From the NCBI GenBank assembly GCA_002898395.1, contig BEHE01000028.1, positions 1-12,334 of the forward strand: a stretch of 12,334 nucleotides of DNA. Reading direction: 5' to 3'. Below, piece after piece: positions 1,763 to 12,334 of this stretch. Source of the DNA: Candidatus Calditenuaceae archaeon HR02 (GTDB lineage Archaea; Thermoproteota; Nitrososphaeria_A; Caldarchaeales; Calditenuaceae). The notes below the pieces were generated by a model, which saw nothing but the letters and a program-made list of their open reading frames with translations, had not been told where the DNA came from and ran no database searches. The first letter of the stretch is position 1. Each line of letters starts with the position of its first letter. Both the position numbers and the translations under genes were made by a program.

Positions 1763-2050
1763 ATGTCGGAGACCCGTGAGAGTGTCCTGATTACTAGGCT
1801 TGTCTTAGACGTCCTGAAACCCCACCAGCCCGATATTGTCGAGTTTAGTAAGAGGTTGGCAGGGGTCAAGGGGGTGAGGAGGGTGGACTCCTCTGTCCTC
1901 GAGATGGATGCGGAAACAGAGACAGTCAAGCTAATCATCGATGGCAATGACTTGGATGTAGAGGTGATAGGAGAGACGATTAAGGCTCTGGGCGGAGCCA
2001 TACATAGTGTCGACGCAACCGTCGTTGAGAAGATAGAGCGCAAGAGGTAG
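1763..2050 (+). CDS. DUF211 (COG1888) family small protein
   Basis: 95 aa. RLVLDVLKPHQPDIVEFSKRLAGVKGVRRV...ETIKALGGAIHSVD is the characteristic DUF211 signature. A TAG stop lies immediately upstream of the ATG. Confidence 0.8.
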   Translation: MSETRESVLITRLVLDVLKPHQPDIVEFSKRLAGVKGVRRVDSSVLEMDAETETVKLIIDGNDLDVEVIGETIKALGGAIHSVDATVVEKIERKR

Positions 2051-2059
2051 TGGCCCAGC

Positions 2060-2656
2060 ATGGTTTTCGGCTGGCTACGCAATCGTTTGAAGACGGTATT
2101 CGAGGTTACAGAGACAAGGGGTGTTGCTCGACGCTATTTTTCACTTCAGGTCTTCGACGGGGCCATGGTGGGCGTCGGGCTGGTCTTCGGACTCCACCTC
2201 TCAGGCCCCCATCCGTTCAGAGTTGTCGCGCAGACAGTCGTCGCCGTGTCTATTGCCATGGTTATTTCGGGGTGGACAGGAGCTCTAATATCGGAGAAGG
2301 CTGAGCAGGAGGCTAGGATCAGGAGACTTGAGCTCGCGACCCTCACAGCCCTGAGGAACACCCTCCACACGAGGGTGGGTTCTATAGCTGTGCTACTAGT
2401 CGCGCTTGTGAACGCCCTTTCACCGGTAGTAGCGCTGCTGACGGTTTCACTACCATACATGATAACGACCCTCTTGGGAGGCGAGACAGTATATGGGTTG
2501 ATATCCTCCCTCGCAGTCACCGCAGCCCTACTCCTTACAGCCGGCGCGGTAGTCGGTCGGGCCGCTGGGATAAATGTGCTTAAAACCTCAGGCCAGATGA
2601 TAGGTGCTGGCCTAGCCGCCGCAGGGCTTATAATTCTCTTCGAGACCCTCTTCTGA
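2060..2656 (+). CDS. VIT1/CCC1-like (COG1814, TIGR00267-type) integral membrane protein
   Basis: 198 aa. It has an N-terminal cytosolic segment (TRGVARRYFSLQVFDGAMVGVGLVFG) followed by several hydrophobic helices. It starts 9 nt after the DUF211 stop, so it is probably co-transcribed. Confidence 0.55.
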   Translation: MVFGWLRNRLKTVFEVTETRGVARRYFSLQVFDGAMVGVGLVFGLHLSGPHPFRVVAQTVVAVSIAMVISGWTGALISEKAEQEARIRRLELATLTALRNTLHTRVGSIAVLLVALVNALSPVVALLTVSLPYMITTLLGGETVYGLISSLAVTAALLLTAGAVVGRAAGINVLKTSGQMIGAGLAAAGLIILFETLF

Positions 2657-2670
2657 GATCCAGGCACGGA

Positions 2671-3756
2671 TTAGAAGTCGGTGAGCCTACTCTGACCCCT
2701 CTCGCTGCTAAGGTCGTAGACCCTGACCCCGATCCTTCGAAGTTCCTCTTCTAGCCCGCTTAGAAGGGCCCTTAAGAGCTGGCGGGAGACGTTCTCCAAC
2801 TCGGTTATCTCTTGCGTTTGGTGTGGGAGGGCCATGCTCTTGGTAACCGGCTTCATCCCCCTTGTTACACCTATTAGGGATACGCCTTTGAACCCATAGC
2901 CTAGTTCGATGACCCTTCGGTGTAGTTCGCGAATGGCCCCCGCCAGCTGCCCCCATATCTCAGCCTCATCCCGAGTCTGGCGCTTCAGCGTAATCATTCT
3001 ACTCATCTGTTTCGCCTCACCCCTTGGGGTCACCTGCTCAAAATATTCGCCGCGGCTGGCGAGATAGATGAACCGCCCAACCCTGAATCCGAAAACTTCC
3101 ATGAGCTTGTCGGAGGGGGTGTTTACAAGGTCGCCGATCGTTTTTATCCCCATATCCCGGAGCCTTTTGGCAGTTTTCACCCCTACATAGGGTATATCCT
3201 CTACGGGTTTGGGCTTTAGATACTGGTCCTCTGTTCCGGGTCTTATAACGAGTAGACCGTCGGGCTTAGAGTCGTCTGCCGCCATCTTTGCTAATAGCTT
3301 GTTCTTCGCAATCCCTATACTGCAGGTCAGACCAGTCCTCGCCCTAATCTCCTTTTTCAAAGACTCCATTAGACGGGCAGCATTCTCGAAGGAGCCTGCA
3401 GCCACCTCGAGCAGGCTCAGAAACGCCTCATCAATGCTAGCCACCTCAATTACGTCTGCGAACCTGCCGGCTATCTCGAAGACCTGATGTGAAAGCGCGG
3501 AGTAATAGGGCATATCGACTGGGAGGAACACTGCGTCCACGCCGCGAAGAAGCTCCTTTGCCCGCCAAATTGGAATCCCAGATCTCACCCCGTACCGCCT
3601 AGCCACATAGTTGCTGGTGGCTACCACTCCGGAATCCGGTGTCCTGCCAGAATAGACGCAGACCACTATGGGCTTATCCCGGATGGCCGGGTTGCGTAGC
3701 TCTTCAGCCTGCGCGTAGAAATAGTCTATGTCTAGGCAGGCTACGGGACCGTTCAC
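2671..3756 (-). CDS. dinB: Y-family DNA polymerase IV (Dpo4/Dbh type)
   Basis: 361 aa, collinear with Sulfolobus Dpo4: LDIDYFYAQAEELRNP..KPIVVCVYSGRT.DSGVVATSNYVARRYGV, SIDEAFL, SIGIAKNKLLAKMAADDSKP, RRIGVRV. The start codon is GTG (plus strand cac at 3754-3756). Confidence 0.95.
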   Translation of the reverse strand: MNGPVACLDIDYFYAQAEELRNPAIRDKPIVVCVYSGRTPDSGVVATSNYVARRYGVRSGIPIWRAKELLRGVDAVFLPVDMPYYSALSHQVFEIAGRFADVIEVASIDEAFLSLLEVAAGSFENAARLMESLKKEIRARTGLTCSIGIAKNKLLAKMAADDSKPDGLLVIRPGTEDQYLKPKPVEDIPYVGVKTAKRLRDMGIKTIGDLVNTPSDKLMEVFGFRVGRFIYLASRGEYFEQVTPRGEAKQMSRMITLKRQTRDEAEIWGQLAGAIRELHRRVIELGYGFKGVSLIGVTRGMKPVTKSMALPHQTQEITELENVSRQLLRALLSGLEEELRRIGVRVYDLSSERGQSRLTDF

Positions 3757-3777
3757 TGCGTCGTCCCTTTAGAGCGT

Positions 3778-3786
3778 ATTATAAAA
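3778..3786 (-). promoter_or_regulatory. TATA-like box for dinB
   Basis: The minus strand reads TTTTATAAT 22-30 nt upstream of the GTG start, which implies a leaderless or near-leaderless mRNA. Confidence 0.4.
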
Positions 3787-3848
3787 CTTTTAACCCTTAT
3801 CCGACAACCAATCTCTAAATTGTTATTTCACCACCTAAAGCCCAAGAA

Positions 3849-3862
3849 TTTAATATATATTT
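3849..3862 (+). promoter_or_regulatory. TATA-like box for mevalonate kinase
   Basis: TTTAATATATATTT lies 35-48 nt upstream of the ATG at 3897. Confidence 0.4.
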
Positions 3863-3896
3863 AGCGGACACATAATAGTTGGTTAGAGAGACTAGT

Positions 3897-4868
3897 ATGG
3901 AATCTGTGACATACTCGGCACCCGCCAAGGTCATATTCTGCGGTGAACATTATGTCGTTTACGGGGGCAGGGCTATTGCGTGTGCTATTCCTAAGAGGGC
4001 CTACGCCACAGTAGCCCGCAGGAACGACTCGCTATTGTCAATTGAGTCGCAGGACGCAAAGATATCGGCAGTATGGAAGGGGGACAAGCTGGTTAAGTGC
4101 TCGGATCAGAGTGCGCCTACGAGGCTGCGCCCACTCAAAATAATGATTGACCGCATATCTGAAATGTATGGTGTCAAGGGATTTTCCGTCGCCATCAAGT
4201 CCCAAATTCCCAGAGGGATGGGGCTCGGCTCCTCGGCCTCGGTATCACTCGCAGTGGCGTCTGCATGCCTCGCCGCGAGTGGTCACGAGGCTAATCAGAC
4301 CGAGGTTTTAGAGATTGCCTCAATTTCTGAGTCTGAAATACATTATAGGGCATCAGGTGTAGATCTTGCTGCGTCTTTGACTGGAGGGTTTATATCCTAT
4401 GTCAGGGGCGAGAGGCCGCGACCCATACCCGTCGGCGAGAAATTCAATATTATACTTGTAAGCACTAAGAAGGGAAGGAGGACTGGTAGCATTGTTAAGC
4501 AGGTCTCAACCCTTAGAGAACAGTTCATCAACGTCTTCGACAGGCTTAGACTAGTGAATGATGAGGTCGCTGCCGAGATGGAAGTTGCGCTGAGGAATCT
4601 CAGGTTTGAGAGACTCGGCTCCCTCTTTACGATTCAGCATAACCTGCTTAAGACCATTGGAGTCTCGAATAAGACTTTAGATGAAGCCGTTGAGCACGCT
4701 CTTAAGGGAGGTGCCTTAGGCGCAAAGCTCACTGGAGCTGGTGGAGGGGGCTGCGTAATCGCGATAGCACCTCAAAATAGGGTTAAAGAGGTCGCTAAAA
4801 TTATCTCCACCAAATTCCCCGCCGAGGTCTTGACGGTACCCCATGAAGGGCTTAGGCGAGAGAAGTAA
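3897..4868 (+). CDS. mvk: mevalonate kinase (GHMP kinase family)
   Basis: SAPAKVIFCGEHYVVYG is the N-terminal mevalonate kinase motif. PRGMGLGSSASVSLAVA is GHMP motif II. KLTGAGGGGCVIA is motif III. I prefer ATG 3897 over the TTG at 3879 used by the ORF track, because alignment with archaeal MVK N-termini begins there. Confidence 0.9.
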   Translation: MESVTYSAPAKVIFCGEHYVVYGGRAIACAIPKRAYATVARRNDSLLSIESQDAKISAVWKGDKLVKCSDQSAPTRLRPLKIMIDRISEMYGVKGFSVAIKSQIPRGMGLGSSASVSLAVASACLAASGHEANQTEVLEIASISESEIHYRASGVDLAASLTGGFISYVRGERPRPIPVGEKFNIILVSTKKGRRTGSIVKQVSTLREQFINVFDRLRLVNDEVAAEMEVALRNLRFERLGSLFTIQHNLLKTIGVSNKTLDEAVEHALKGGALGAKLTGAGGGGCVIAIAPQNRVKEVAKIISTKFPAEVLTVPHEGLRREK

Positions 4869-4871
4869 CCT

Positions 4872-6068
4872 TTAACTAGATTTCCGCTTAGCTAGCCTTG
4901 TGGCACTTATAACAGTTTCCAGCCCCCAAATCTTGCTGAAGCCCTCGCCGGCCTTTTGCTGGAAGACACTTCCCTTAGCATATGTCGCTATTTCATGTGA
5001 GTAGAGAGGATTCTCAGCCATTCTGCCGATAATCCTGGCTGAACCCTTGTAGAGCTCAAGCTTCACACGCCCCGTTACATTCTCTTGGGTACTTTCTATG
5101 AAGGCGTGGAGCGCGTCCATGAGCGGGTCAAGCCAGAAGCCCTGATAGACCATCTGGCTCCATATCCTCTCGACCAGGGCCTTGAAGGATAGTGTCTTGC
5201 CGTTAAGCGTGATTTTCTCCAAGTCTCTATGGGCCTTGATGAGTATGAGGGCTGCGGGAGCCTCGTAGACCTCCCTCGACTTAATTCCCACCGCCCTATC
5301 CTCTATGTGGTCTATGATTCCGAAGCCAGTTCTCCCACCGAGTATGTTGAGCTCCTGTATCAGCTCGCCTAGCGGCATGTCCCGCCCATTTAGTCCTACA
5401 GGAACCCCCCTCTCAAAGTCTATCTCCACCATCTCCACCTTGTCGGGTGCATGTTGAGGGTTGACCACGTACTTGAAGGCCTCGTAGGGTGGCTTGACCC
5501 ATGGGTCCTCCAGCTCAGCGGCCTCAATGGAGCGGCTCCAGAGATTCTCGTCTATGCTGAATCTACTCTGTCTGAAGTCCAGCTTCAGACCCCTACTCTT
5601 TGCAAACTCTATCTCCTCGTCCCTGCTCAGGTCCCACTCCCTGATCGGCGCGATGATCCTTAACTGGGGAGCCAAGACCGATATAGTTATATCGAATCTC
5701 AGCTGGTCGTTTCCTTTCCCAGTGCATCCATGTGCAACAGCCTCGCACCCTTCCCTCAAAGCAACCTCGACTACCTTTGCCGCAATAAGCGGCCTCGCAA
5801 GGGCTGTCCCTAGTGGATACTCATCTTCATAGAGCCCATTCGCCTTGATGCACGGTTTGATATAGTGTTCTACGAACTCTTTCTTCGCGTCGATGAAAAA
5901 ATGCTTTGACGCGCCTGCAGAGAGTGCCCTATCCTCAATCTCGTCGAAATCCTCGCTCTGGCCGACGTCGACCGTCACAGTTATAACCTCCGCGCCATAC
6001 TTCTCCTTCAACCAGGGGATCGAGACAGTTGTGTCAAGCCCCCCACTATAAGCTAGGGCGACCTTCAT
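4872..6068 (-). CDS. argG: argininosuccinate synthase
   Basis: 398 aa. MKVALAYSGGLDTTV is the N-type ATP-pyrophosphatase P-loop. GCTGKGNDQLRF and the length and order of motifs are typical of ArgG. Confidence 0.95.
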   Translation of the reverse strand: MKVALAYSGGLDTTVSIPWLKEKYGAEVITVTVDVGQSEDFDEIEDRALSAGASKHFFIDAKKEFVEHYIKPCIKANGLYEDEYPLGTALARPLIAAKVVEVALREGCEAVAHGCTGKGNDQLRFDITISVLAPQLRIIAPIREWDLSRDEEIEFAKSRGLKLDFRQSRFSIDENLWSRSIEAAELEDPWVKPPYEAFKYVVNPQHAPDKVEMVEIDFERGVPVGLNGRDMPLGELIQELNILGGRTGFGIIDHIEDRAVGIKSREVYEAPAALILIKAHRDLEKITLNGKTLSFKALVERIWSQMVYQGFWLDPLMDALHAFIESTQENVTGRVKLELYKGSARIIGRMAENPLYSHEIATYAKGSVFQQKAGEGFSKIWGLETVISATRLAKRKSS

Positions 6069-6091
6069 GCTTCAACCAGCACACTACGATG

Positions 6092-6100
6092 TTTTTTAAG
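6092..6100 (-). promoter_or_regulatory. TATA-like box for argG
   Basis: The minus strand reads CTTAAAAAA 24-32 nt upstream of the ATG at 6068. Confidence 0.4.
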
Positions 6101-6130
6101 ATTATTGCCTCGGGGGTTGAGGGAAACAAC

Positions 6131-6140
6131 AAATATATAC
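6131..6140 (+). promoter_or_regulatory. TATA-like box for the SCP2 gene
   Basis: AAATATATAC is centred ~27 nt upstream of the GTG at 6163. This supports that (leaderless) start. Confidence 0.4.
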
Positions 6141-6162
6141 CCAGTTTGATCTGGAATACCAC

Positions 6163-6504
6163 GTGGTTAACAAGTCTCTATCAGCACTTCGCGAACTAGT
6201 CGCACTGGCATCGGAGAAGCCTCTGATAAAGATGCGCACGGCAAGGATGGTAAAGACATTCCAGTTCAAGCCATCAGACTCCCCACCTTACTACCTCCAA
6301 ATCGTCAACGGGGTTCTAAAGGTAGGAGAGGGCGAGGCAACTAATCCAGTAGCCACAATAATAGCCACAGACGAAGACCTAGCAGGAATCATAAAGGGAA
6401 ATGTCGACCCGGTGCAGCTCTTCTTTGCCGGCCGCGTCAAGGTACAGGGTAGCCTATTCGACGCCCAAGAACTTGCCACAATCCTGAGAGACGCGGCACG
6501 ATAA
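6163..6504 (+). CDS. SCP2 (sterol carrier protein 2-like) domain protein
   Basis: 113 aa. KTFQFKPSDSPPYYLQIVNGVLKVGEG....ATIIATDEDLAGIIKGNVDPVQLFFAGRVKVQGSLFDAQELATIL follows the SCP2 domain pattern. GTG start; an alternative ATG is at 6232. Confidence 0.75.
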   Translation: MVNKSLSALRELVALASEKPLIKMRTARMVKTFQFKPSDSPPYYLQIVNGVLKVGEGEATNPVATIIATDEDLAGIIKGNVDPVQLFFAGRVKVQGSLFDAQELATILRDAAR

Positions 6505-6571
6505 GCCAGCCACCAAACCTTCGAAAAGATATTTAACATAAACTCGTATTGAGCAAAATTTTTGCAAAAGA

Positions 6572-6645
6572 TGCCGGCGGTGGGACTCGAACCCACGGCA
6601 ACGGGATTATGAGTCCCGCGCTCTACCAGCCTGAGCTACGCCGGC
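6572..6645 (-). tRNA. tRNA with CAT anticodon (elongator Met, or Ile2 if C34 is modified)
   Basis: The reverse complement folds as GCCGGCG TA GCTC AGGCTGGTA GAGC G CGGGA CTCATAA TCCCG TTGCC GTGGG TTCGAGT CCCAC CGCCGGC A. It is 74 nt, all stems are perfect, no CCA is encoded and there is no intron. Confidence 0.9.
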
Positions 6646-6850
6646 ACTCTGGCCAGCCAAACCCAACCCGCCGGCAATACAAGCAAGGAATTAGCCTCTA
6701 TTAATCCTTGATGAGCCGCGATATGCCCAAACAGGATTTGGGGGGCGTATTGGATTTAAGGGAGGACACCTGGCCTAGGCCTTCCCATGGATGAGTAACA
6801 AGCAGACTAGTTCAATCCTATTCCCAAAAAATACTTTATATCTATGCACA

Positions 6851-7645
6851 TTATTTTACTGGTTTCCCACATTTGCCGCAGAACTTGTCGCCGGGTTGGA
6901 GCGGGTTTCCACAATAGCCGCAGAAAAGCTCTCCCCCTGTAGCTGCTGTAGACGGGGCTCCGGGGGGTGGTGGGGATGGAGGCCGGAGAGAGGGTGCTGA
7001 CTCATATATGTTTGCGGCTGACCTGCCTATGAAGACCATGAAGATAGGCGAGATGATGAGGGCTATGAGCCATCCAACGAACGGTATAGCAGAAAGCCCA
7101 GCAAGCACAAGCGTTATCACGAATATTATGATTATCCAGAGAATGTAGTTCCCCCAGCCTGCTGTTCTGATTTTTGACAATATTTGGTCAAAATCAAATG
7201 CGGCCCCCATCCTTCCCGTCTTGACCATGTGTACAATCGCCATCAACGCTATTATCATTATTAAGAACACTAGAACCAACCCTATCACTACTAGCACACT
7301 ACCAACAATTCCGAGCCCGCTGAAAGGAAATAGCACGCCAGCAACAATCGCCGAAGCAGCCCCCACAGAGATCAAGGCGACAGGAACTATCATGTAGACT
7401 AATAAGACGACGAAAATTTTTGCACCATCTATCCACAGGTCCCCATATTTCTCGAGAGGTGGTGGAGCTTCTACCCTCGGTGACTCTCTGACAACCCTTG
7501 CGAAGTACCCAACCACAATGAAGTTGACTATCGGTATTATGTTCAGAACAACTAGGATGGCAAGCCTCCCGATGTCTTTGAATAGCTTGACAGTGTAGTT
7601 GTAGGCATCCCCTAAATTTTCATCGAGCCTCATACCATTACCCAC
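6851..7645 (-). CDS. DUF4013-like polytopic membrane protein with Pro-rich linker and C-terminal zinc ribbon
   Basis: GYFARVVRES....PPPLEKYGDLWIDGAKIFVVLLVYMI resembles the DUF4013 core, and there are about 6 hydrophobic helices. The C-terminus has PSLRPPSPPPPGAPS followed by CGYCGNPLQPGDKFCGKCGKPV. The ORF-track start is GTG 7645. ATG 7633 (MRLDENL...) is an equally plausible start. Confidence 0.7.
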   Translation of the reverse strand: MGNGMRLDENLGDAYNYTVKLFKDIGRLAILVVLNIIPIVNFIVVGYFARVVRESPRVEAPPPLEKYGDLWIDGAKIFVVLLVYMIVPVALISVGAASAIVAGVLFPFSGLGIVGSVLVVIGLVLVFLIMIIALMAIVHMVKTGRMGAAFDFDQILSKIRTAGWGNYILWIIIIFVITLVLAGLSAIPFVGWLIALIISPIFMVFIGRSAANIYESAPSLRPPSPPPPGAPSTAATGGELFCGYCGNPLQPGDKFCGKCGKPVK

Positions 7646-7970
7646 CTAGCTTCGATCCGCAACTAGTGCAGTATATCATGTCTGGCGCATTCACTTTTCC
7701 ACAGTTGGGACACACCTTCTCCGACGACGGGCTAGTCATGGGTGGAGTCTTTACTATAGCAGACGACTTGACGAGAACCACGTCCCCGAAAGCAATTATT
7801 TGAGACGAAGGTACTGCCTCTTCACCCCCCTCGCCCGGCTTATCATATATCAAAACAATCTTCCCCTCAGCATCATACCCAATATCCTTAACTTTTCCAA
7901 GCCTGATAGCGGAATCCGATATAATGTCCTTACCTACGATCTCATCCCTTCTGAAGTATCTTTTACCCAA
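7638..7970 (-). CDS. PRC-barrel domain protein with C-terminal zinc ribbon
   Basis: RRDEIVGKDIISDSAIRLGKVKDIGYDAEGKIVLIY...IAFGDVVLV follows the PRC-barrel pattern. The C-terminus has CPNCGKVNAPDMIYCTSCGSKL. It uses a TTG start preceded by GGTGGGTGA (SD-like) 4 nt upstream. Its stop overlaps or abuts the start of the downstream DUF4013 gene. Confidence 0.75.
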   Translation of the reverse strand: MGKRYFRRDEIVGKDIISDSAIRLGKVKDIGYDAEGKIVLIYDKPGEGGEEAVPSSQIIAFGDVVLVKSSAIVKTPPMTSPSSEKVCPNCGKVNAPDMIYCTSCGSKLGG

Positions 7971-8054
7971 AAATCACCCACCAGTACTTGGCAAATCTAG
8001 GTATTTATTCGACACATATAAGTTTTAAAAGTTTGACATGTTTAAAAATCAATT

Positions 8055-8483
8055 TGACTTTTCATAGATTCCAGTTGGGGGATATCTCGCTATGCTGGCG
8101 CGGCCGAAGCCTGATGGTGTAGGTGTCCGGCGTCTCTTTGGCTTTCCTGACAACCCTCACGGTGGAGTGGCTCTCATACAGGCGGATGTGGATAGAGTCT
8201 AAGAGAGATGCATACATGACGTATGTCTATCCCAAGACTATAAGAAGTTCTTAAAGAAGATCGGAACATCGATACTCAGGAAGCAGCATCTCATAGAATT
8301 ATCAACAAAAGCAATATGGTATTACATGGATGAGATAGGAGAGAGGAAGGACTGGTGGAAGATTTGTGAGATGCTACGGATAGCTATCGGCAGGAGAATG
8401 AAGCGCAAAGGAAAACCCAACCCCTCCCCCTTTTCTTCCTCCTTGTTACTTGCCTACCACAGTATTTGATGTATTCATAAAGA
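8055..8483 (+). repeat. Repeat copy A: diverged ~0.43 kb segment homologous to 11977-12334 (inverted); decayed coding remnant abutting the 3' end of tRNA-Thr
   Basis: Collinear blocks were matched by hand. 8074-8090 matches rc 12301-12315. 8329-8363 matches rc 12092-12126 (30/35 identical). 8394-8434 matches rc ~12020-12063. Only a broken reading frame is present (open 8203-8466, stop codon 8467-8469, no start before 8326). Confidence 0.5.
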
Positions 8484-8557
8484 AGCCTCGGGCGGGATTT
8501 GAACCCGCGACCCCCGGCTTACCAAGCCGGTGCTCCACCCGGCTGAGCTACCGAGGC
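8484..8557 (-). tRNA. tRNA-Thr(GGT)
   Basis: The reverse complement folds as GCCTCGG TA GCTC AGCCGGGTG GAGC A CCGGC TTGGTAA GCCGG GGGTC GCGGG TTCAAAT CCCGC CCGAGGC T. It is 74 nt with perfect stems, U73, no CCA and no intron. Confidence 0.9.
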
Positions 8558-8789
8558 GCACACCTATCGTTTGAAGACCGTGAATTTAGCTATTAAGGAT
8601 TTTATAGCGAAATTTTATGGATAAGAATGTTCGAGGAAGCATGGCTGGTGGGAGAGTATATGGCACTGGCATTTTGCCATGGTCGAAAGACTGGTGCTTT
8701 ACTAAGTTATTATCAGCGGTTTGCGAATCTGTTCAGGAGGGGTGGACACACTTATGAGCGGCTTGGGTTTAACTGAGTTAGTTGGAGCT

Positions 8790-8830
8790 GCGGCCGTGGT
8801 CTAGCCTGGACTAGGACGTGGGCTTTCCGA
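8790..8830 (+). tRNA. 5' piece (positions 1-38) of an interrupted/split tRNA-Gly(UCC) gene
   Basis: GCGGCCG TG GTCT AGCCTGGACTA GGAC G TGGGC TTTCCGA, after which the tRNA-like sequence ends in A/T-rich DNA. The partner piece is at 11943-11976. Confidence 0.8.
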
Positions 8831-8879
8831 GCGAATATAGATACAATCAAGTATAAGTTACTCGTAATACCTGTTGCAA

Positions 8880-8884
8880 TTTTT
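8880..8884 (+). terminator. T5 tract ~50 nt downstream of the tRNA-Gly 5' piece
   Basis: TTTTT could terminate a separately transcribed 5' half. The region is A/T-rich, so this may be chance. Confidence 0.25.
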
Positions 8885-8943
8885 AGAGAAATATAATAAG
8901 TTAAGTAATGAGAAAGTAAGAAAGTAATATCATTTGAAAACTT

Positions 8944-8953
8944 AAAATAAAAA
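8944..8953 (-). terminator. oligo-T terminator after the LAGLIDADG gene
   Basis: The minus strand reads CCCTTTTTATTTT starting ~10 nt after the TAA stop at 8963-8965. Confidence 0.4.
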
Positions 8954-8962
8954 GGGAGTGGG

Positions 8963-9814
8963 TTAGGTCGGGTTGTTTGTTATGGCTTGTAACAATTGCT
9001 GTAATCGTATCCTCTTCTTGTCTACTGTAAATCCAATTATCGCAGCGTATCTGCGAATATCTTCCTTGCGACAAATATGCAGTTCATATAATGCTTTCTT
9101 CGAAGTAATGTAACAATTTTCAGGCTCATAATAATGGCTTTTAAATCCGCCGTAGTAGATCCTTGAATATATGCCAAGCTGTTGTAAGAGATGTTTTATA
9201 TAGCGAAGTAGTTGAAGGTTTGTATTTGATATTTTTATTCTTTTCGTGCTAACTATCGGACCGCCTTCTGCGTCAGCGAATCCACGTATGAATGATTTTA
9301 CACATTCTTGGCAATGTTCTACGTATGGTATTATTGCTGAAATATCGTTGTGGTCTTTTACTCTCATACTAAGAAGGTAGAGTTCTCTACTGTATGCTCT
9401 TGCTAACCATGTTTCTTCAGACCTTATGTAATATGCTCTGTATGGTTTACTTCTCCCTAGAGCTACAGCAGCGGACCGAGCAAATTCTTCAGCAAATTCC
9501 TTATCCTTCACAGGTAAAAGGACCATGTACTTTTTCGCCTTTACTTCATAGTGTTTATATCCATCCCCTAAATATGCGCCAAGCGTGTATCCTGTCTCTG
9601 GACAATTTCTGAGTTTATTCAGTCTTTGATCAGATTTTGGTCTCCCTTTGCCATCATTCTTTGGTGTATGTATATGCCTTAGCCAGTAACTCAGCGTGGA
9701 CTTCGGGACATCTAAGCTATATTGTTGCTGGAGTATATTCCTTATTTCGTAATACGACGCCCCCTCTTTCCTTAATCTAAGTACTTCGTCATATATTTCT
9801 TCGTATTTTTTCAT
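8963..9814 (-). CDS. free-standing double-motif LAGLIDADG homing endonuclease with N-terminal helix-turn-helix domain
   Basis: Motif 1 is LGAYLGDGY. Motif 2 is IRGFADAEGG, ~99 aa later, giving D...E catalytic spacing as in single-chain enzymes such as I-DmoI. The N-terminal ~75 aa are HTH-like (GASYYEIRNILQQQYSLDVPKSTLSYWLRH). I place the start at ATG 9814 (MKKYEEIY) because GGGGAGGAGGA (SD-like) immediately precedes it. The ORF track extends to 9835. Confidence 0.85.
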   Translation of the reverse strand: MKKYEEIYDEVLRLRKEGASYYEIRNILQQQYSLDVPKSTLSYWLRHIHTPKNDGKGRPKSDQRLNKLRNCPETGYTLGAYLGDGYKHYEVKAKKYMVLLPVKDKEFAEEFARSAAVALGRSKPYRAYYIRSEETWLARAYSRELYLLSMRVKDHNDISAIIPYVEHCQECVKSFIRGFADAEGGPIVSTKRIKISNTNLQLLRYIKHLLQQLGIYSRIYYGGFKSHYYEPENCYITSKKALYELHICRKEDIRRYAAIIGFTVDKKRIRLQQLLQAITNNPT

Positions 9815-9929
9815 TCCTCCTCCCCTACAGTCCACTGTTACATTGAGTCTTTAGGAGTATAGCAGCTAAGAGGACCATGCATTTATTAGTCTTATTATAT
9901 TTATTATCCGAGATTTCACATATCTCTGT

Positions 9930-10862
9930 CTAGGCAGGGCCTTCATACGCCCCCATGGTAACGTGTTGGGGGAAGCGGCCGCTAGGCTGCGCGGCTCTGC
10001 CATGTAGAACTGTCATCAAAGTCGGAAACGCTAACTGTATTCGAAAGCACTCAGTAAAATTATCTGAAAACCAACTGGCCTCAGTGGAGTCGTTGATAGC
10101 AGTCTTTCCATCACTTGTTCCGAGTTCTCCTCCCGCGTCTTCTCCGGGACACCCTCTAGGCCTGCTCCGTTCACAGCGTGCTCCAAGCATATCTTCTAGC
10201 TCTTCACTATACGCTCCGGGAGCAGGATAGAGGTATCCGTTCACCAAAGACACGGAAGGATATCGGCCCTCATGTAGGAGATGCGTATGAGGCGCTGGCT
10301 TCGGGCCAGCGCAGCCATTATGGGAGCCTTTCACCCCAAGCTCCGGGCACCCTAAGGCTTACTAACCCTTCACCACCAACACACTCATACGCAGCGCCCC
10401 CATCGGGCCGGCCTCCCAGAGGCTCAGGCTAAAACTCCCAACGGCGAGAGCCGCCCAAGCGGAAGCCCAAGCCCAGAAGGCCCGACACAGAACCCGACCA
10501 CCCTCCGCCCGGACTCAAATATATTATCCGGGCGCCGCCAGCAAAGGTGGGAAATATATGATTCGCTCATCTTAATCAGTGCTGTCAACAGTGACCATAT
10601 CGGCCCTCCTGGAAGATGTGAGGGCCCTCAACATCTCCTCCCAGACGCCCAGCTCCTGCCAAAGCCTAAGCCTCCTCCAGGCCGTTTTGTAAGAACCGTA
10701 CTCAGCGGGCATGTCCATCCAGCGGCACCCAGTCGTCAGGACATAGAGTATGCCGTTCAGCACGCGCCTGTCATCAGCCCTAGGCCTACCACCCCTAGGC
10801 TTAGGAGGGAGAAGCGGCCTAATCAACTCCCACTCAAAGTCGCTAAGCTCCCTGAACTCCAA
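9930..10862 (-). pseudogene. decayed IS4/IS5-superfamily transposase (intact N-terminal DUF4096-like ORF 10572-10862; DDE part broken by stops and frameshifts)
   Basis: LSDFEWELIRPLLPPKPRGGRPRADDRRVLNGILYVLTTGCRWMDMPAEYGSYKTAWRRLRLWQELGVWE is the typical N-terminus of IS5/IS1031-like transposases. The ORF stops right at the first DDE aspartate region (VDSTD*). The downstream frames keep only faint transposase-like strings (e.g. GAYSEELEDML). G+C is much higher than in the flanking island DNA. Confidence 0.6.
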
Positions 10863-10887
10863 GCCGAAAACATATGACCTGAGAGAG

Positions 10888-10900
10888 CTTAAATAATTTT
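10888..10900 (+). promoter_or_regulatory. TATA-like box for the 10931 ORF
   Basis: CTTAAATAATTTT lies 31-43 nt upstream of the ATG at 10931. Confidence 0.35.
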
Positions 10901-10930
10901 GAGACGAGTTCTAAGATAAGAACTATCTGG

Positions 10931-11488
10931 ATGAATAGACCGCTCGCTTCCACTATTCTGTTGCTTATAGCAGGTGGCTTTTACATAATTGGTGGGTTCG
11001 TTGCAGCTAGCATAGTTGGGTGGCTTGGTGCTTTAACAGCCAGTCTAGGTGCTTCTGGAGTTGCACAGGAGGCGCAGGAGAGTGTTGTAATTGTCATATC
11101 TACTGGTTTTGTATCTGGAGGAGGTATTATTGTAGGTGCGCTCCTCGTTTGGACAGGAACTAGACGAAAGGTATTGATTGGTGGTATAATTGCACTAATC
11201 TTCAGCCTTATTGGTATAATAAACACTATTGGAGGTCTGATTGTAGGCTTAGTGTTAACTATAGTTGGAGCGGTCCTAGCATTCACATGGAAAGCTCATA
11301 ATGCTCATACAAGCTTAAGAACGAGCAACTATCATACATCCTCTAACTACATCAATACGCAGATAACAAAGAAGCTTAGAAACGTGCCAGATAGGTGCCC
11401 TAGATGTGGAGGATACAATATCGTAGGATACACGGGTATTTATGACTGCTTCGACTGCGGCTATAAGTTTGCTGAAGAACATGTCTAA
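10931..11488 (+). CDS. hypothetical Gly-rich 4-TM membrane protein with C-terminal zinc ribbon
   Basis: 185 aa with four hydrophobic Gly/Ile-rich helices, a polar linker, then CPRCGGYNIVGYTGIYDCFDCGYKF. I recognise no family. Confidence 0.55.
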   Translation: MNRPLASTILLLIAGGFYIIGGFVAASIVGWLGALTASLGASGVAQEAQESVVIVISTGFVSGGGIIVGALLVWTGTRRKVLIGGIIALIFSLIGIINTIGGLIVGLVLTIVGAVLAFTWKAHNAHTSLRTSNYHTSSNYINTQITKKLRNVPDRCPRCGGYNIVGYTGIYDCFDCGYKFAEEHV

Positions 11489-11796
11489 CGCTCTTGCCTC
11501 TCTAGTTCAGCAGCTAATAATGCTGCCTTCCATCGTGGTCGATTTTGCTAACGGATAATGTTTTCAGAAATGATGACTGAGTATCAATGAGAACCTTAAA
11601 AAAGATTATCTGAGATTCTTAGATATGGTCTTTGACAGTTAATGTACAATAAGGGCCTGTATTATTCTATTATTTCTATTCCCTCATCTTGGGCCTCATA
11701 GGGCCTGCTAGTTTAGGTAGTCCCATGAATATGCCAATAAACTATATGTAGTAGCATAAACTCTTCTAACTATGGACGCCTAACATTTATTATTAT

Positions 11797-11801
11797 AAAA
11801 A
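11797..11801 (-). terminator. oligo-T tract directly after the intact tRNA-Gly
   Basis: The minus strand reads TTTTTATAATAATAA immediately after the discriminator base. Confidence 0.4.
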
Positions 11802-11877
11802 TGCGGCCGGCGGGATTTGAACCCGCGATCGCTGGGTTGGAAACCCAGCGTCCTAGTCCAGGCTAGACGACGGCCGC
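11802..11877 (-). tRNA. tRNA-Gly(TCC), intact
   Basis: The reverse complement folds as GCGGCCG TC GTCT AGCCTGGACTA GGAC G CTGGG TTTCCAA CCCAG CGATC GCGGG TTCAAAT CCCGC CGGCCGC A. It is 76 nt with perfect stems and no intron. Confidence 0.92.
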
Positions 11878-11901
11878 TAGTTTAATTATTCTTTTATGGG
11901 A

Positions 11902-11910
11902 GTTATTTAG
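11902..11910 (-). promoter_or_regulatory. TATA-like box for the intact tRNA-Gly
   Basis: The minus strand reads CTAAATAAC at -33 to -25 relative to the tRNA 5' end. Confidence 0.4.
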
Positions 11911-11942
11911 GTTTCGCTCTATGATTATATGTAGTTATAGTG

Positions 11943-11976
11943 CCCAATACCCGGGTTCAAATCCCGGCGGCCGCAA
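11943..11976 (+). tRNA. 3' piece (positions 39-73) of the interrupted/split tRNA-Gly(UCC) gene
   Basis: GCCCA ATAC CCGGG TTCAAAT CCCGG CGGCCGC A. The anticodon-stem strand is complementary 5/5 to 8819-8823. The acceptor strand is complementary 7/7 to 8790-8796. It is followed by T-rich sequence (ATTTTAATAATTATGGCTTTTT). Confidence 0.8.
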
Positions 11977-12334
11977 TTTTAATAATTATGGCTTTTTCAA
12001 TGTGGTAAGTATGAGGGGATAAAGGGGGAGGGGGCGGGTTATCGTCTGCGCTTCAACATTCTCTTACCTACCCCATTTGTTGTTTTGGCTCATCTTCCAC
12101 CAATACTTCCCTTCTCCTATCTCGTCCACATAACGCCGTATCATCTTGTTGAGGGTTCGATACCCCCGCCGCTAGTAGTGGTGCATATAGTTAGGTGCCT
12201 TAAATACTCCCCAAAACACCAACAATACGTATACACAAAACAGGGCCAGATACAACACAAAGCAAAGAAAAAAACTCGTGAAGATAAATAAGCTATCCAG
12301 AGATATACCCCCGACGAGGGCTTAAAAGCCTCTA
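11977..12334 (-). repeat. Repeat copy B: inverted, diverged homologue of 8055-8483, abutting the 3' end of the tRNA-Gly 3' piece; runs off the window
   Basis: It shows the same collinear blocks as copy A. The minus-strand frame reads ...RRGYRTLNKMIRRYVDEIGEGKYWWKMSQ..., versus ...LSTKAIWYYMDEIGERKDWWKICEML... in copy A. Confidence 0.5.

Follow-up and report, generated by a model that had tools for sequence, protein, structure and literature searches.

Split transfer RNA (tRNA) genes are central to a debate on whether two half-molecules gave rise to tRNAs or mobile DNA broke tRNA genes at a later stage. The split tRNAs of Nanoarchaeum equitans, the tri-split tRNA-Gly of Caldivirga maquilingensis and the split tRNA-Asp and tRNA-Lys of the Desulfurococcales rely for joining on a leader and a trailer whose complementary sequences pair into a bulge-helix-bulge at the borders of the exons (PMC4033280; PMC3218864). 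In Caldiarchaeum subterraneum a fragment of tRNA-Thr(GGU) is separated from a tRNA gene by a 1.87-kb insertion, for which an integrase-type mechanism was proposed and which was put forward as a way in which split tRNAs could arise (Sugahara et al. 2012, PMC3293823). The locus described here is a tRNA-Gly(UCC) gene of Candidatus Calditenuaceae archaeon HR02 (Caldarchaeales), a metagenome-assembled genome (MAG). Its two pieces lie 3.1 kb apart on contig BEHE01000028.1, the whole of which (12,334 bp) was analysed and is referred to as the window. The initial annotation of the locus left two readings standing, a gene killed by an insertion and a genuine split tRNA gene. We consider it probable that insertion of mobile DNA killed the resident gene and that an imported tRNA replaces it, the two pieces not being those of a split tRNA that is rejoined as RNA.

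What the HR02 locus has in common with the split tRNA genes cited above is that its halves are broken beside the anticodon, lie in the same orientation and give a perfect cloverleaf, and that the organism is a thermophilic archaeon. It differs in having neither complementary leader and trailer sequences nor a bulge-helix-bulge, in that the split is not conserved in relatives, and in the presence of a complete isoacceptor gene; the likeness is to the first step that has been hypothesized for splitting and not to a split gene that works. The likeness to C. subterraneum extends to the order (Caldarchaeales), to a tRNA fragment cut off by an insert of foreign composition, approximately 2-3 kb in length and encoding a protein that acts on DNA, and to the existence of uninterrupted alleles in relatives or in the population. 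In C. subterraneum, however, the element provides a new 5' part, so that a complete tRNA is rebuilt in cis beside the leftover fragment, and the element has direct tRNA repeats on either side, whereas in HR02 there is no rebuilding in cis and the borders share only the dinucleotide GC. The HR02 break also lies in the anticodon loop, the protein encoded is a LAGLIDADG enzyme, and the insert holds a complete tRNA gene with the same anticodon in inverted orientation.

Three further comparisons are suggested by that enzyme. The closest solved structures are those of I-DmoI and I-Tsp061I, endonucleases of bulge-helix-bulge rRNA introns, which likewise present an archaeal stable-RNA gene interrupted by LAGLIDADG-encoding DNA; their DNA is a spliceable intron with the endonuclease on the same strand as the host gene, whereas the HR02 insert has no splice motif and its endonuclease is on the opposite strand and carries an extra N-terminal helix-turn-helix (HTH). 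Some free-standing endonuclease open reading frames (ORFs) of mitochondria substitute a 3' end of their own for that of the target gene (Allomyces atp6). SegB of phage T4, also free-standing, acts on tRNA gene regions (PMC2330249). Both resemble the HR02 case in that an endonuclease gene lies in or beside a conserved target and a resistant copy or segment travels along, the host function being kept. SegB is a GIY-YIG enzyme and promotes gene conversion that leaves no broken pieces, in contrast to HR02, where the enzyme is of the LAGLIDADG kind, the target stays broken, compensation would be by a whole extra gene and cleavage is putative.

The 5' piece of the resident gene (8790..8830, plus strand) encodes tRNA positions 1-38, namely the acceptor 5' strand, the D arm, the 5' strand of the anticodon stem (TGGGC) and the loop TTTCCGA, exactly as first annotated. 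The 3' piece (plus strand) supplies positions 39-73, comprising GCCCA, the variable loop, the T arm, the acceptor 3' strand and discriminator A. Its existence had been recognized, but its coordinates were given as 11943-11976; it lies one base lower, at 11942..11975, and a join that uses the former coordinates has a defective anticodon arm in ARAGORN. The gap between the pieces, put at 3,112 bp in the initial annotation, is 3,111 nt (8831-11941). With the 3' coordinates corrected, the predicted cloverleaf is recovered: 8790-8830 joined to 11942-11975 is scored by ARAGORN as a canonical 75-nt tRNA-Gly(tcc) with an acceptor stem paired at 7/7 positions, an anticodon stem of 5 bp, a perfect T arm and discriminator A. 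The resident type of tRNA-Gly(UCC) reaches 62.0 bits against the Rfam tRNA model, and its anticodon arm is GGACGTGGGCTTTCCGAGCCCAATACC. Comparison with the intact allele (...TTTCCGAGCCCAAT...) shows GC at both junctions (8831-8832 and 11942-11943), so that the break falls between tRNA positions 38/39 and 40/41, with the 2-nt ambiguity already noted in the initial annotation. The repeated GC would be either a 2-bp target duplication or a trace of microhomology.

The 3' piece was scanned across one genome per prokaryotic species, and 24 loci were recovered (labels such as L004 are used below to tell loci apart). The uninterrupted allele that the initial annotation suggested looking for in related genomes is found in nine of them: L004-L007, L010-L013 and L019 carry the exact 75-mer, 100% identical and without a break. 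All nine are Caldarchaeales, Nitrososphaerota or 'Thermoproteota' MAGs. Since the exact 75-mer exists uninterrupted in these nine related loci, the fit of the two pieces to one another is far beyond chance.

The flanks of the broken gene also look native. On the left, L019 is ~84% identical in nucleotide sequence to the window over 1815-8030 (6.2 kb), as is L006 over 2615-7983 (5.4 kb). Closer in, blastn matches window 8745-8832 to L006 and L013 and window 8750-8832 to L019; the 45 nt 5' of the 5' piece (8745..8789, plus strand), the native upstream region with the presumed promoter, include the motif ACTTATGAGCGGCTTGG and are kept ahead of the intact gene in these three loci. The divergent neighbour of the resident gene is tRNA-Thr(GGU) (8484..8557, minus strand), and the same divergent pair exists in L010, L007 and L011. 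In L010 a LAGLIDADG gene or fragment converges on the 3' end of each tRNA of the pair, and the tRNA-Gly(UCC) is intact. Local alignment and tblastn find decayed counterparts of both in the window: one past the 3' end of the resident tRNA-Gly and convergent with it (11987-12152, aligned core 12021..12152, minus strand), the other downstream of tRNA-Thr (8198-8464, aligned core 8302-8433). The C-terminus of the L010 protein gives weak tblastn matches at 12034-11987 and 8198-8464, and the two cores are inverted paralogues of ~130 nt whose local alignment score of 65 is reached by none of 300 shuffles. The remnant past tRNA-Gly marks the right flank as belonging to the native tRNA-Thr/tRNA-Gly/LAGLIDADG architecture seen in L010. 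Because both flanks look native and relatives have the gene intact, the intact gene is taken as ancestral and the break as having arisen in the HR02 lineage.

Since the inverted remnants (8302-8433 and 12021-12152) flank the Thr/Gly pair, they could mediate inversion of the whole pair. The order and orientation of the tRNA cluster vary among relatives, L019, L006 and L013 having one arrangement and L007, L010 and L011 another. Other archaeal tRNA-Gly genes with the same T arm and acceptor stem have introns of ~15-40 nt beside the anticodon (loci L008, L014, L022 and L023; L009, L015, L017 and L025; L018 and L024), and an intron was found in none of 12 Caldarchaeales-like loci with the resident type of tRNA-Gly.

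The DNA that separates the pieces (8833..11941; 3,109 bp, or 3,111 bp including one copy of GC) is missing from the intact alleles. It is a mosaic: its AT-rich arms have 36.6% and 40.3% GC and its middle 56.1%, against 51.2% in the host DNA to the left. Blastn against a plasmid collection gave no match to it. The initial annotation was right in placing genes on both strands of the gap, but it overlooked a complete tRNA gene with the same anticodon. From left to right the insert contains an intact endonuclease gene, a GC-rich block, a truncated transposase gene, a gene for a membrane protein, the second tRNA-Gly(UCC) gene and an AT-rich spacer.

The endonuclease gene (8963..9814, minus strand) converges on the broken end of the 5' piece, with 131 bp of AT-rich DNA between them. 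It encodes a protein of 283 residues with an N-terminal HTH and a double-motif LAGLIDADG region that matches Pfam LAGLIDADG_3 with an E value of 4.9e-17; its NCBIfam matches are to intein endonuclease domains. The AlphaFold model (predicted local distance difference test score, pLDDT, 84.7) has I-DmoI as its top Foldseek match (E 1.4e-7, template modelling score 0.64-0.69), with PI-PfuI and I-Tsp061I among the further top structural matches. The D of LGDGY and the E of ADAEGG align with I-DmoI, and we take them to be equivalent to its D21 and E117. With two LAGLIDADG helices, both catalytic acids and the pseudo-dimeric alpha-beta-beta-alpha-beta-beta-alpha fold that the model predicts, the protein belongs to the LAGLIDADG homing endonuclease family. 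Its relatives make up 1,108 cluster representatives at E<=1e-3, the best of them 41-44% identical. Neither tblastn of the protein against phage records nor the LAGLIDADG profile against IMG/VR found a relative.

The complete second tRNA-Gly(UCC), here called Gly-prime, lies at 11802..11877 on the minus strand, inside the gap and 64 bp from the resident 3' piece. ARAGORN identifies it, and it scores 63.4 bits against the Rfam tRNA model. It is ~84% identical to the joined resident 75-mer. The acceptor stem and D arm are the same; the anticodon stem is CTGGG/CCCAG as against TGGGC/GCCCA in the resident, position 37 is A, and the variable loop and the first pair of the T stem differ. A TATA-like TAAATAA lies at -32 to -26 (11903-11909, minus strand) and may be its promoter element. 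The gene carries G1-C72, C2-G71, G3-C70, A73 and C35C36, which we take to be the archaeal glycine identity elements; Gly-prime is presumably expressed and charged and so supplies tRNA-Gly(UCC). With a complete tRNA-Gly(UCC) inside the gap, the resident pieces are dispensable. A pattern built on the Gly-prime anticodon arm (GCTGGGTTTCCAACCCAGC...) had no match in a viral collection; in a metagenome collection its long form had none and a 19-mer had 23, none of them in a tRNA.

The broken gene and Gly-prime form two inverted repeats, 8790-8828 with 11839-11877 (39 nt, 90%) and 11796-11825 with 11952-11981 (30 nt, 93%), and the 39-nt pair, which brackets nearly the whole insert, is a potential substrate for inversion. 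The idea that a single inversion at this repeat would yield a classical integration product was rejected: the flip completes the left tRNA and leaves an inverted 5' half beside the 3' piece. Gly-prime was also considered as a hybrid attachment-site product; this was rejected as well, the gene being of a single sequence type throughout and the 5' piece keeping the resident-type G9 and TGGGC.

The remaining contents of the insert are less informative. The GC-rich (56%) block at 9925..10570 holds no convincing ORF and forms long imperfect hairpins (fold energy -284 kcal/mol as against -252+-5.7 kcal/mol for shuffles; z = -5.6); its ORFs gave no match in Pfam, PHROG or NCBIfam, and the block gave no notable match in Rfam at E<=10. 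The truncated IS5-family transposase gene (10572..10862, minus strand) retains the N-terminal ~97 of ~258 residues (Pfam DUF4096, 1.7e-29; NCBIfam transpos_IS5_3, positions 4-97 of 258, 4.3e-31). An ORF at 10931..11488 (plus strand), apparently cargo, encodes a predicted membrane protein of 185 residues with a C-terminal zinc ribbon, for which the only homologues found were one that is 63% identical, on a contig of 42% GC (L062), and one weak match. The 64-bp AT-rich spacer at the right end (11878..11941) is unlike the resident upstream region in alignment.

Assembly of the locus was compared with Logan contigs. Run DRR101361, assembled independently, gives a contig (L033) that matches window 8483-10662 at 100% identity and spans the left junction, which confirms that the 5' piece runs into AT-rich DNA; a second contig covers 10639-11766. 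At the right junction, repeats by which a misjoin might arise do not exceed 2 nt.

The part of the initial annotation that allowed for a gene killed by an insertion is thus supported: an identical uninterrupted gene is present in all related genomes examined, L010 included, and the gap is mosaic mobile DNA of differing composition. The course of events was probably as follows. Before the insertion the resident tRNA-Gly(UCC) was a normal, uninterrupted 75-nt gene. Some 3.1 kb of foreign mosaic DNA then entered at the 3' edge of its anticodon loop in the HR02 lineage, with GC at both junctions. The pieces of the gene lack the pairing and splicing architecture of known split tRNAs and in all likelihood are dead. 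Transcription from the promoter that the 5' piece has kept may yield a half-molecule of no use, probably ending at a run of five T residues at 8880-8884, and Gly-prime would have taken over the decoding of GGA and GGG. The sequence establishes the insertion, the kind of endonuclease fold and its intactness, the presence of Gly-prime and the lack of splicing architecture; a cut made by the endonuclease, expression and charging of Gly-prime and failure of the pieces to be joined are inferred.

For the manner of entry we prefer initiation by the endonuclease, to which we give roughly one chance in three. The LAGLIDADG enzyme would have made a double-strand break in the resident anticodon arm, and in the course of repair the endonuclease gene would have been copied in or captured, and with it linked DNA that included a tRNA-Gly; the tRNA-Gly so carried, differing at many positions of the anticodon arm, would escape cutting. 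The truncated IS5 gene and the GC-rich block would be passengers that came earlier or later. This route is favoured because the endonuclease gene is intact while all around it has decayed, because it converges on the broken end, oriented as its relatives are toward tRNA 3' ends, and because Gly-prime differs from the resident precisely in the arm that was hit. A more novel reading makes the insert a self-compensating homing cassette, in which the LAGLIDADG enzyme that cuts the resident anticodon arm travels with a cleavage-resistant tRNA-Gly(UCC) that restores the function destroyed; we regard it as rather unlikely.

Several points weigh against the account of a gene killed by insertion or against its endonuclease step. 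Both that step and homing are putative. The endonuclease gene and Gly-prime lie at opposite ends of the insert with the IS5 remnant between them, and they may not be a unit. Apart from the HR02 contig, the exact 283-residue protein is known only from Logan assemblies of DRR runs, two in number; outside the HR02 population neither the insertion nor the exact protein was found a second time, and the closest relatives of the protein (L063 and L065, 41-44% identity) are not beside tRNAs. Independent assembly support reaches the left junction and not the right. With a promoter retained ahead of the 5' piece, and TATA-like sequences (uninformative in AT-rich DNA) in the spacer before the 3' piece, both pieces could be transcribed; both are also 100% identical to the functional gene of relatives, which fits a very recent insertion or continued selection. 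The count of tRNA-Gly(UCC) genes, finally, is that of the HR02 contig, one part of the MAG.

Integration of a plasmid or virus by an integrase, followed by decay in which the integrase and an element-supplied tRNA segment were lost by deletion or rearrangement and Gly-prime and the LAGLIDADG gene stayed behind as leftover cargo, is in our estimate improbable. It has precedent, since tRNA genes are the usual attachment sites in archaea and tRNA fragments the usual scar (PMC3293823, PMC3218864). The foreign composition of the insert and its visible decay (the truncated IS5 gene) would suit it, as would the presence of distant LAGLIDADG relatives in virus-like contigs. However, no integrase or fragment of one is found in any ORF of the insert by Pfam, PHROG or NCBIfam, and the borders have no tRNA direct repeat beyond the 2-nt GC. 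Classical integration rebuilds the tRNA in cis, but here the 5' piece stops exactly where the 3' piece starts, and no element-supplied 3' half was found, either after it or at any other point on the insert's plus strand. Any later deletion would need to have begun precisely at the boundary of the attachment site, and Gly-prime, which might be looked to as the product, is not a hybrid and is inverted.

Transposition, with the 3.1 kb as a non-autonomous or composite transposon and GC as a 2-bp target-site duplication, is very unlikely. Some IS5 subgroups make target duplications of 2-4 bp, GC is duplicated at both junctions, and an IS5-family transposase fragment lies inside the insert; that remnant is internal and truncated, however, and not terminal. 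The termini show a weak, imperfect inverted repeat that agrees at 9/14 positions (CGAATATAGATACA / GCACTATAACTACA). This is barely above chance in AT-rich sequence and was set aside as evidence. Neither the window nor any of the collections searched yielded a second copy of the 3.1-kb element.

That the gene is a genuine split tRNA, trans-spliced or with a giant intron, its pieces being transcribed, paired through their flanks, cut by the tRNA splicing endonuclease and ligated, has very little probability indeed. The two pieces do have the order and orientation required and make a perfect cloverleaf once joined, the break is 1-3 nt from the canonical 37/38 intron position, the 5' piece retains the native promoter and neither piece is degraded. 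When the pairs required for a bulge-helix-bulge were written out for all five splice registers that the sequence allows, however, none of the five gave the motif, the 4-bp central helix never exceeding 2 pairs. A helix of 7 bp (GAGCGAA/UUCGCUC) can form from G37 and is the longest Watson-Crick match between trailer and leader, but 162 of 500 shuffles equal or beat it, and 22 nt separate it from the 3' exon, where known split tRNAs have the pairing directly beside the exon (PMC4033280). The energy of the trailer/leader duplex (-18.4 kcal/mol, as against -16.3+-3.2 kcal/mol for shuffles) is within 1 standard deviation, and cofolding of the halves with 20-100 nt of flank gives nothing above chance. 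Neither a group I or group II intron nor any other Rfam family is found in the gap (E<=1 over the window; E<=10 in 9840-10620). The split is missing from all relatives examined, and the gap contains a complete isoacceptor gene. The split-tRNA reading fails three defining features, and this alternative of the initial annotation, a gene of the Nanoarchaeum, Caldivirga or Desulfurococcales type, is not supported: the HR02 locus is not of that class and its tRNA gene is disrupted by mobile DNA.

To an assembly chimera, with the tRNA gene intact in the real genome, we give next to no credence: the window is a whole MAG contig, repeats common to tRNA genes can mislead assemblers and the right junction is without independent support, but an independent assembly reproduces the left junction base for base and a second contig covers 10639-11766, the breakpoints share no repeat longer than 2 nt, and a misjoin would not make them exactly complementary.

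A tRNA gene that is cleanly bisected near the anticodon in HR02 and whole in all relatives examined directly supports the view that split tRNA genes were broken late by mobile elements, and it extends what had been a single example, from Caldiarchaeum. What is new is that a LAGLIDADG homing endonuclease, not an integrase, is aboard, and that the lost function is apparently compensated by a complete spare tRNA and not by rebuilding. Were the insert indeed a homing cassette, it would represent a third route by which such DNA is made harmless to its host, the others being splicing, as in introns and inteins, and a duplicated 3' end of the target; the broken gene would then capture, in nature, how mobile DNA takes its first step toward the making of a split tRNA gene. 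There is also a caution for the annotation of archaeal MAGs: tRNA finders report the spare gene only, and half-tRNA searches would wrongly call a split tRNA. ARAGORN, run with introns allowed, also returns a spurious 'tRNA-Asn(att)' with a long intron at window 11825-11975, made of the 3' piece paired with the reverse complement of Gly-prime, which is a trap of its own.

The wider family of the endonuclease has its own association with tRNA genes. One branch of this HTH+LAGLIDADG_3 family, itself well conserved, numbers more than 700 members at E<=0.001, of which the best 120 are 60-98% identical to the L010 protein. In five types of locus besides the window, the ends of its members come to within a few nucleotides of an opposite-strand tRNA gene's 3' end, or overlap it. 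In L010 (3283-3621 and 4445-5458) the tRNAs abutted are tRNA-Thr and tRNA-Gly(UCC), in L013 (3-191 and 4445-5029) tRNA-Thr and tRNA-Met, in L060 (4001-5008) tRNA-Gly(GCC) and in L064 (133-987) tRNA-Ala(UGC), the last identified by eye. In L057-59 the gene (L057 4001-4927) abuts an intron-containing tRNA; that of L057 (4909-5026; Rfam 47 bits; 'Ser(aga)' in ARAGORN) has a 43-nt intron and is overlapped at its 3' end for 19 nt by the opposite-strand LAGLIDADG ORF. The kinds of tRNA abutted are thus Thr, Gly-UCC, Met, Gly-GCC and Ala, with one intron-containing tRNA besides. The cassette of L064, a single gene, is flanked by a directly repeated copy of the tRNA 3' end (12-13 of 14 nt) and that of L013 by a repeat of 28 of 34 nt. 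No tRNA is adjacent to the members in L061, L063 and L065 or in the virus-like contigs L026-L032. Taken together, these arrangements suggest that some of the family are mobile cassettes with tRNA genes as their landing sites, and in the literature searched we found no description of a tRNA-abutting HTH+LAGLIDADG_3 cassette. On the homing-cassette reading, the HTH+LAGLIDADG_3 proteins encoded against tRNA 3' ends in Nitrososphaerota would form a family of homing endonucleases with tRNA genes as their targets.

Two minor observations relate to this family. Contigs L026-L031 (ENA/JGI, 4-17 kb) each encode a ~31-34%-identical relative of the 283-residue protein as a lone gene on the opposite strand among arrays of small ORFs of unknown function and DNA methyltransferases, with no tRNAs, a context that looks virus-like. 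In the window, a search for T-loop motifs, which also picks up the resident 3' piece (11942-11975), finds a degenerate motif, GGTTCGATACC within GAGGGTTCGATACCCCCGCCGCTA, at 12154-12164 on the plus strand, just past the LAGLIDADG remnant on the far side of the 3' piece. An earlier cassette may have displaced an older tRNA-Gly here, as in L013 and L064, and the motif may be what is left of that gene's 3' end.

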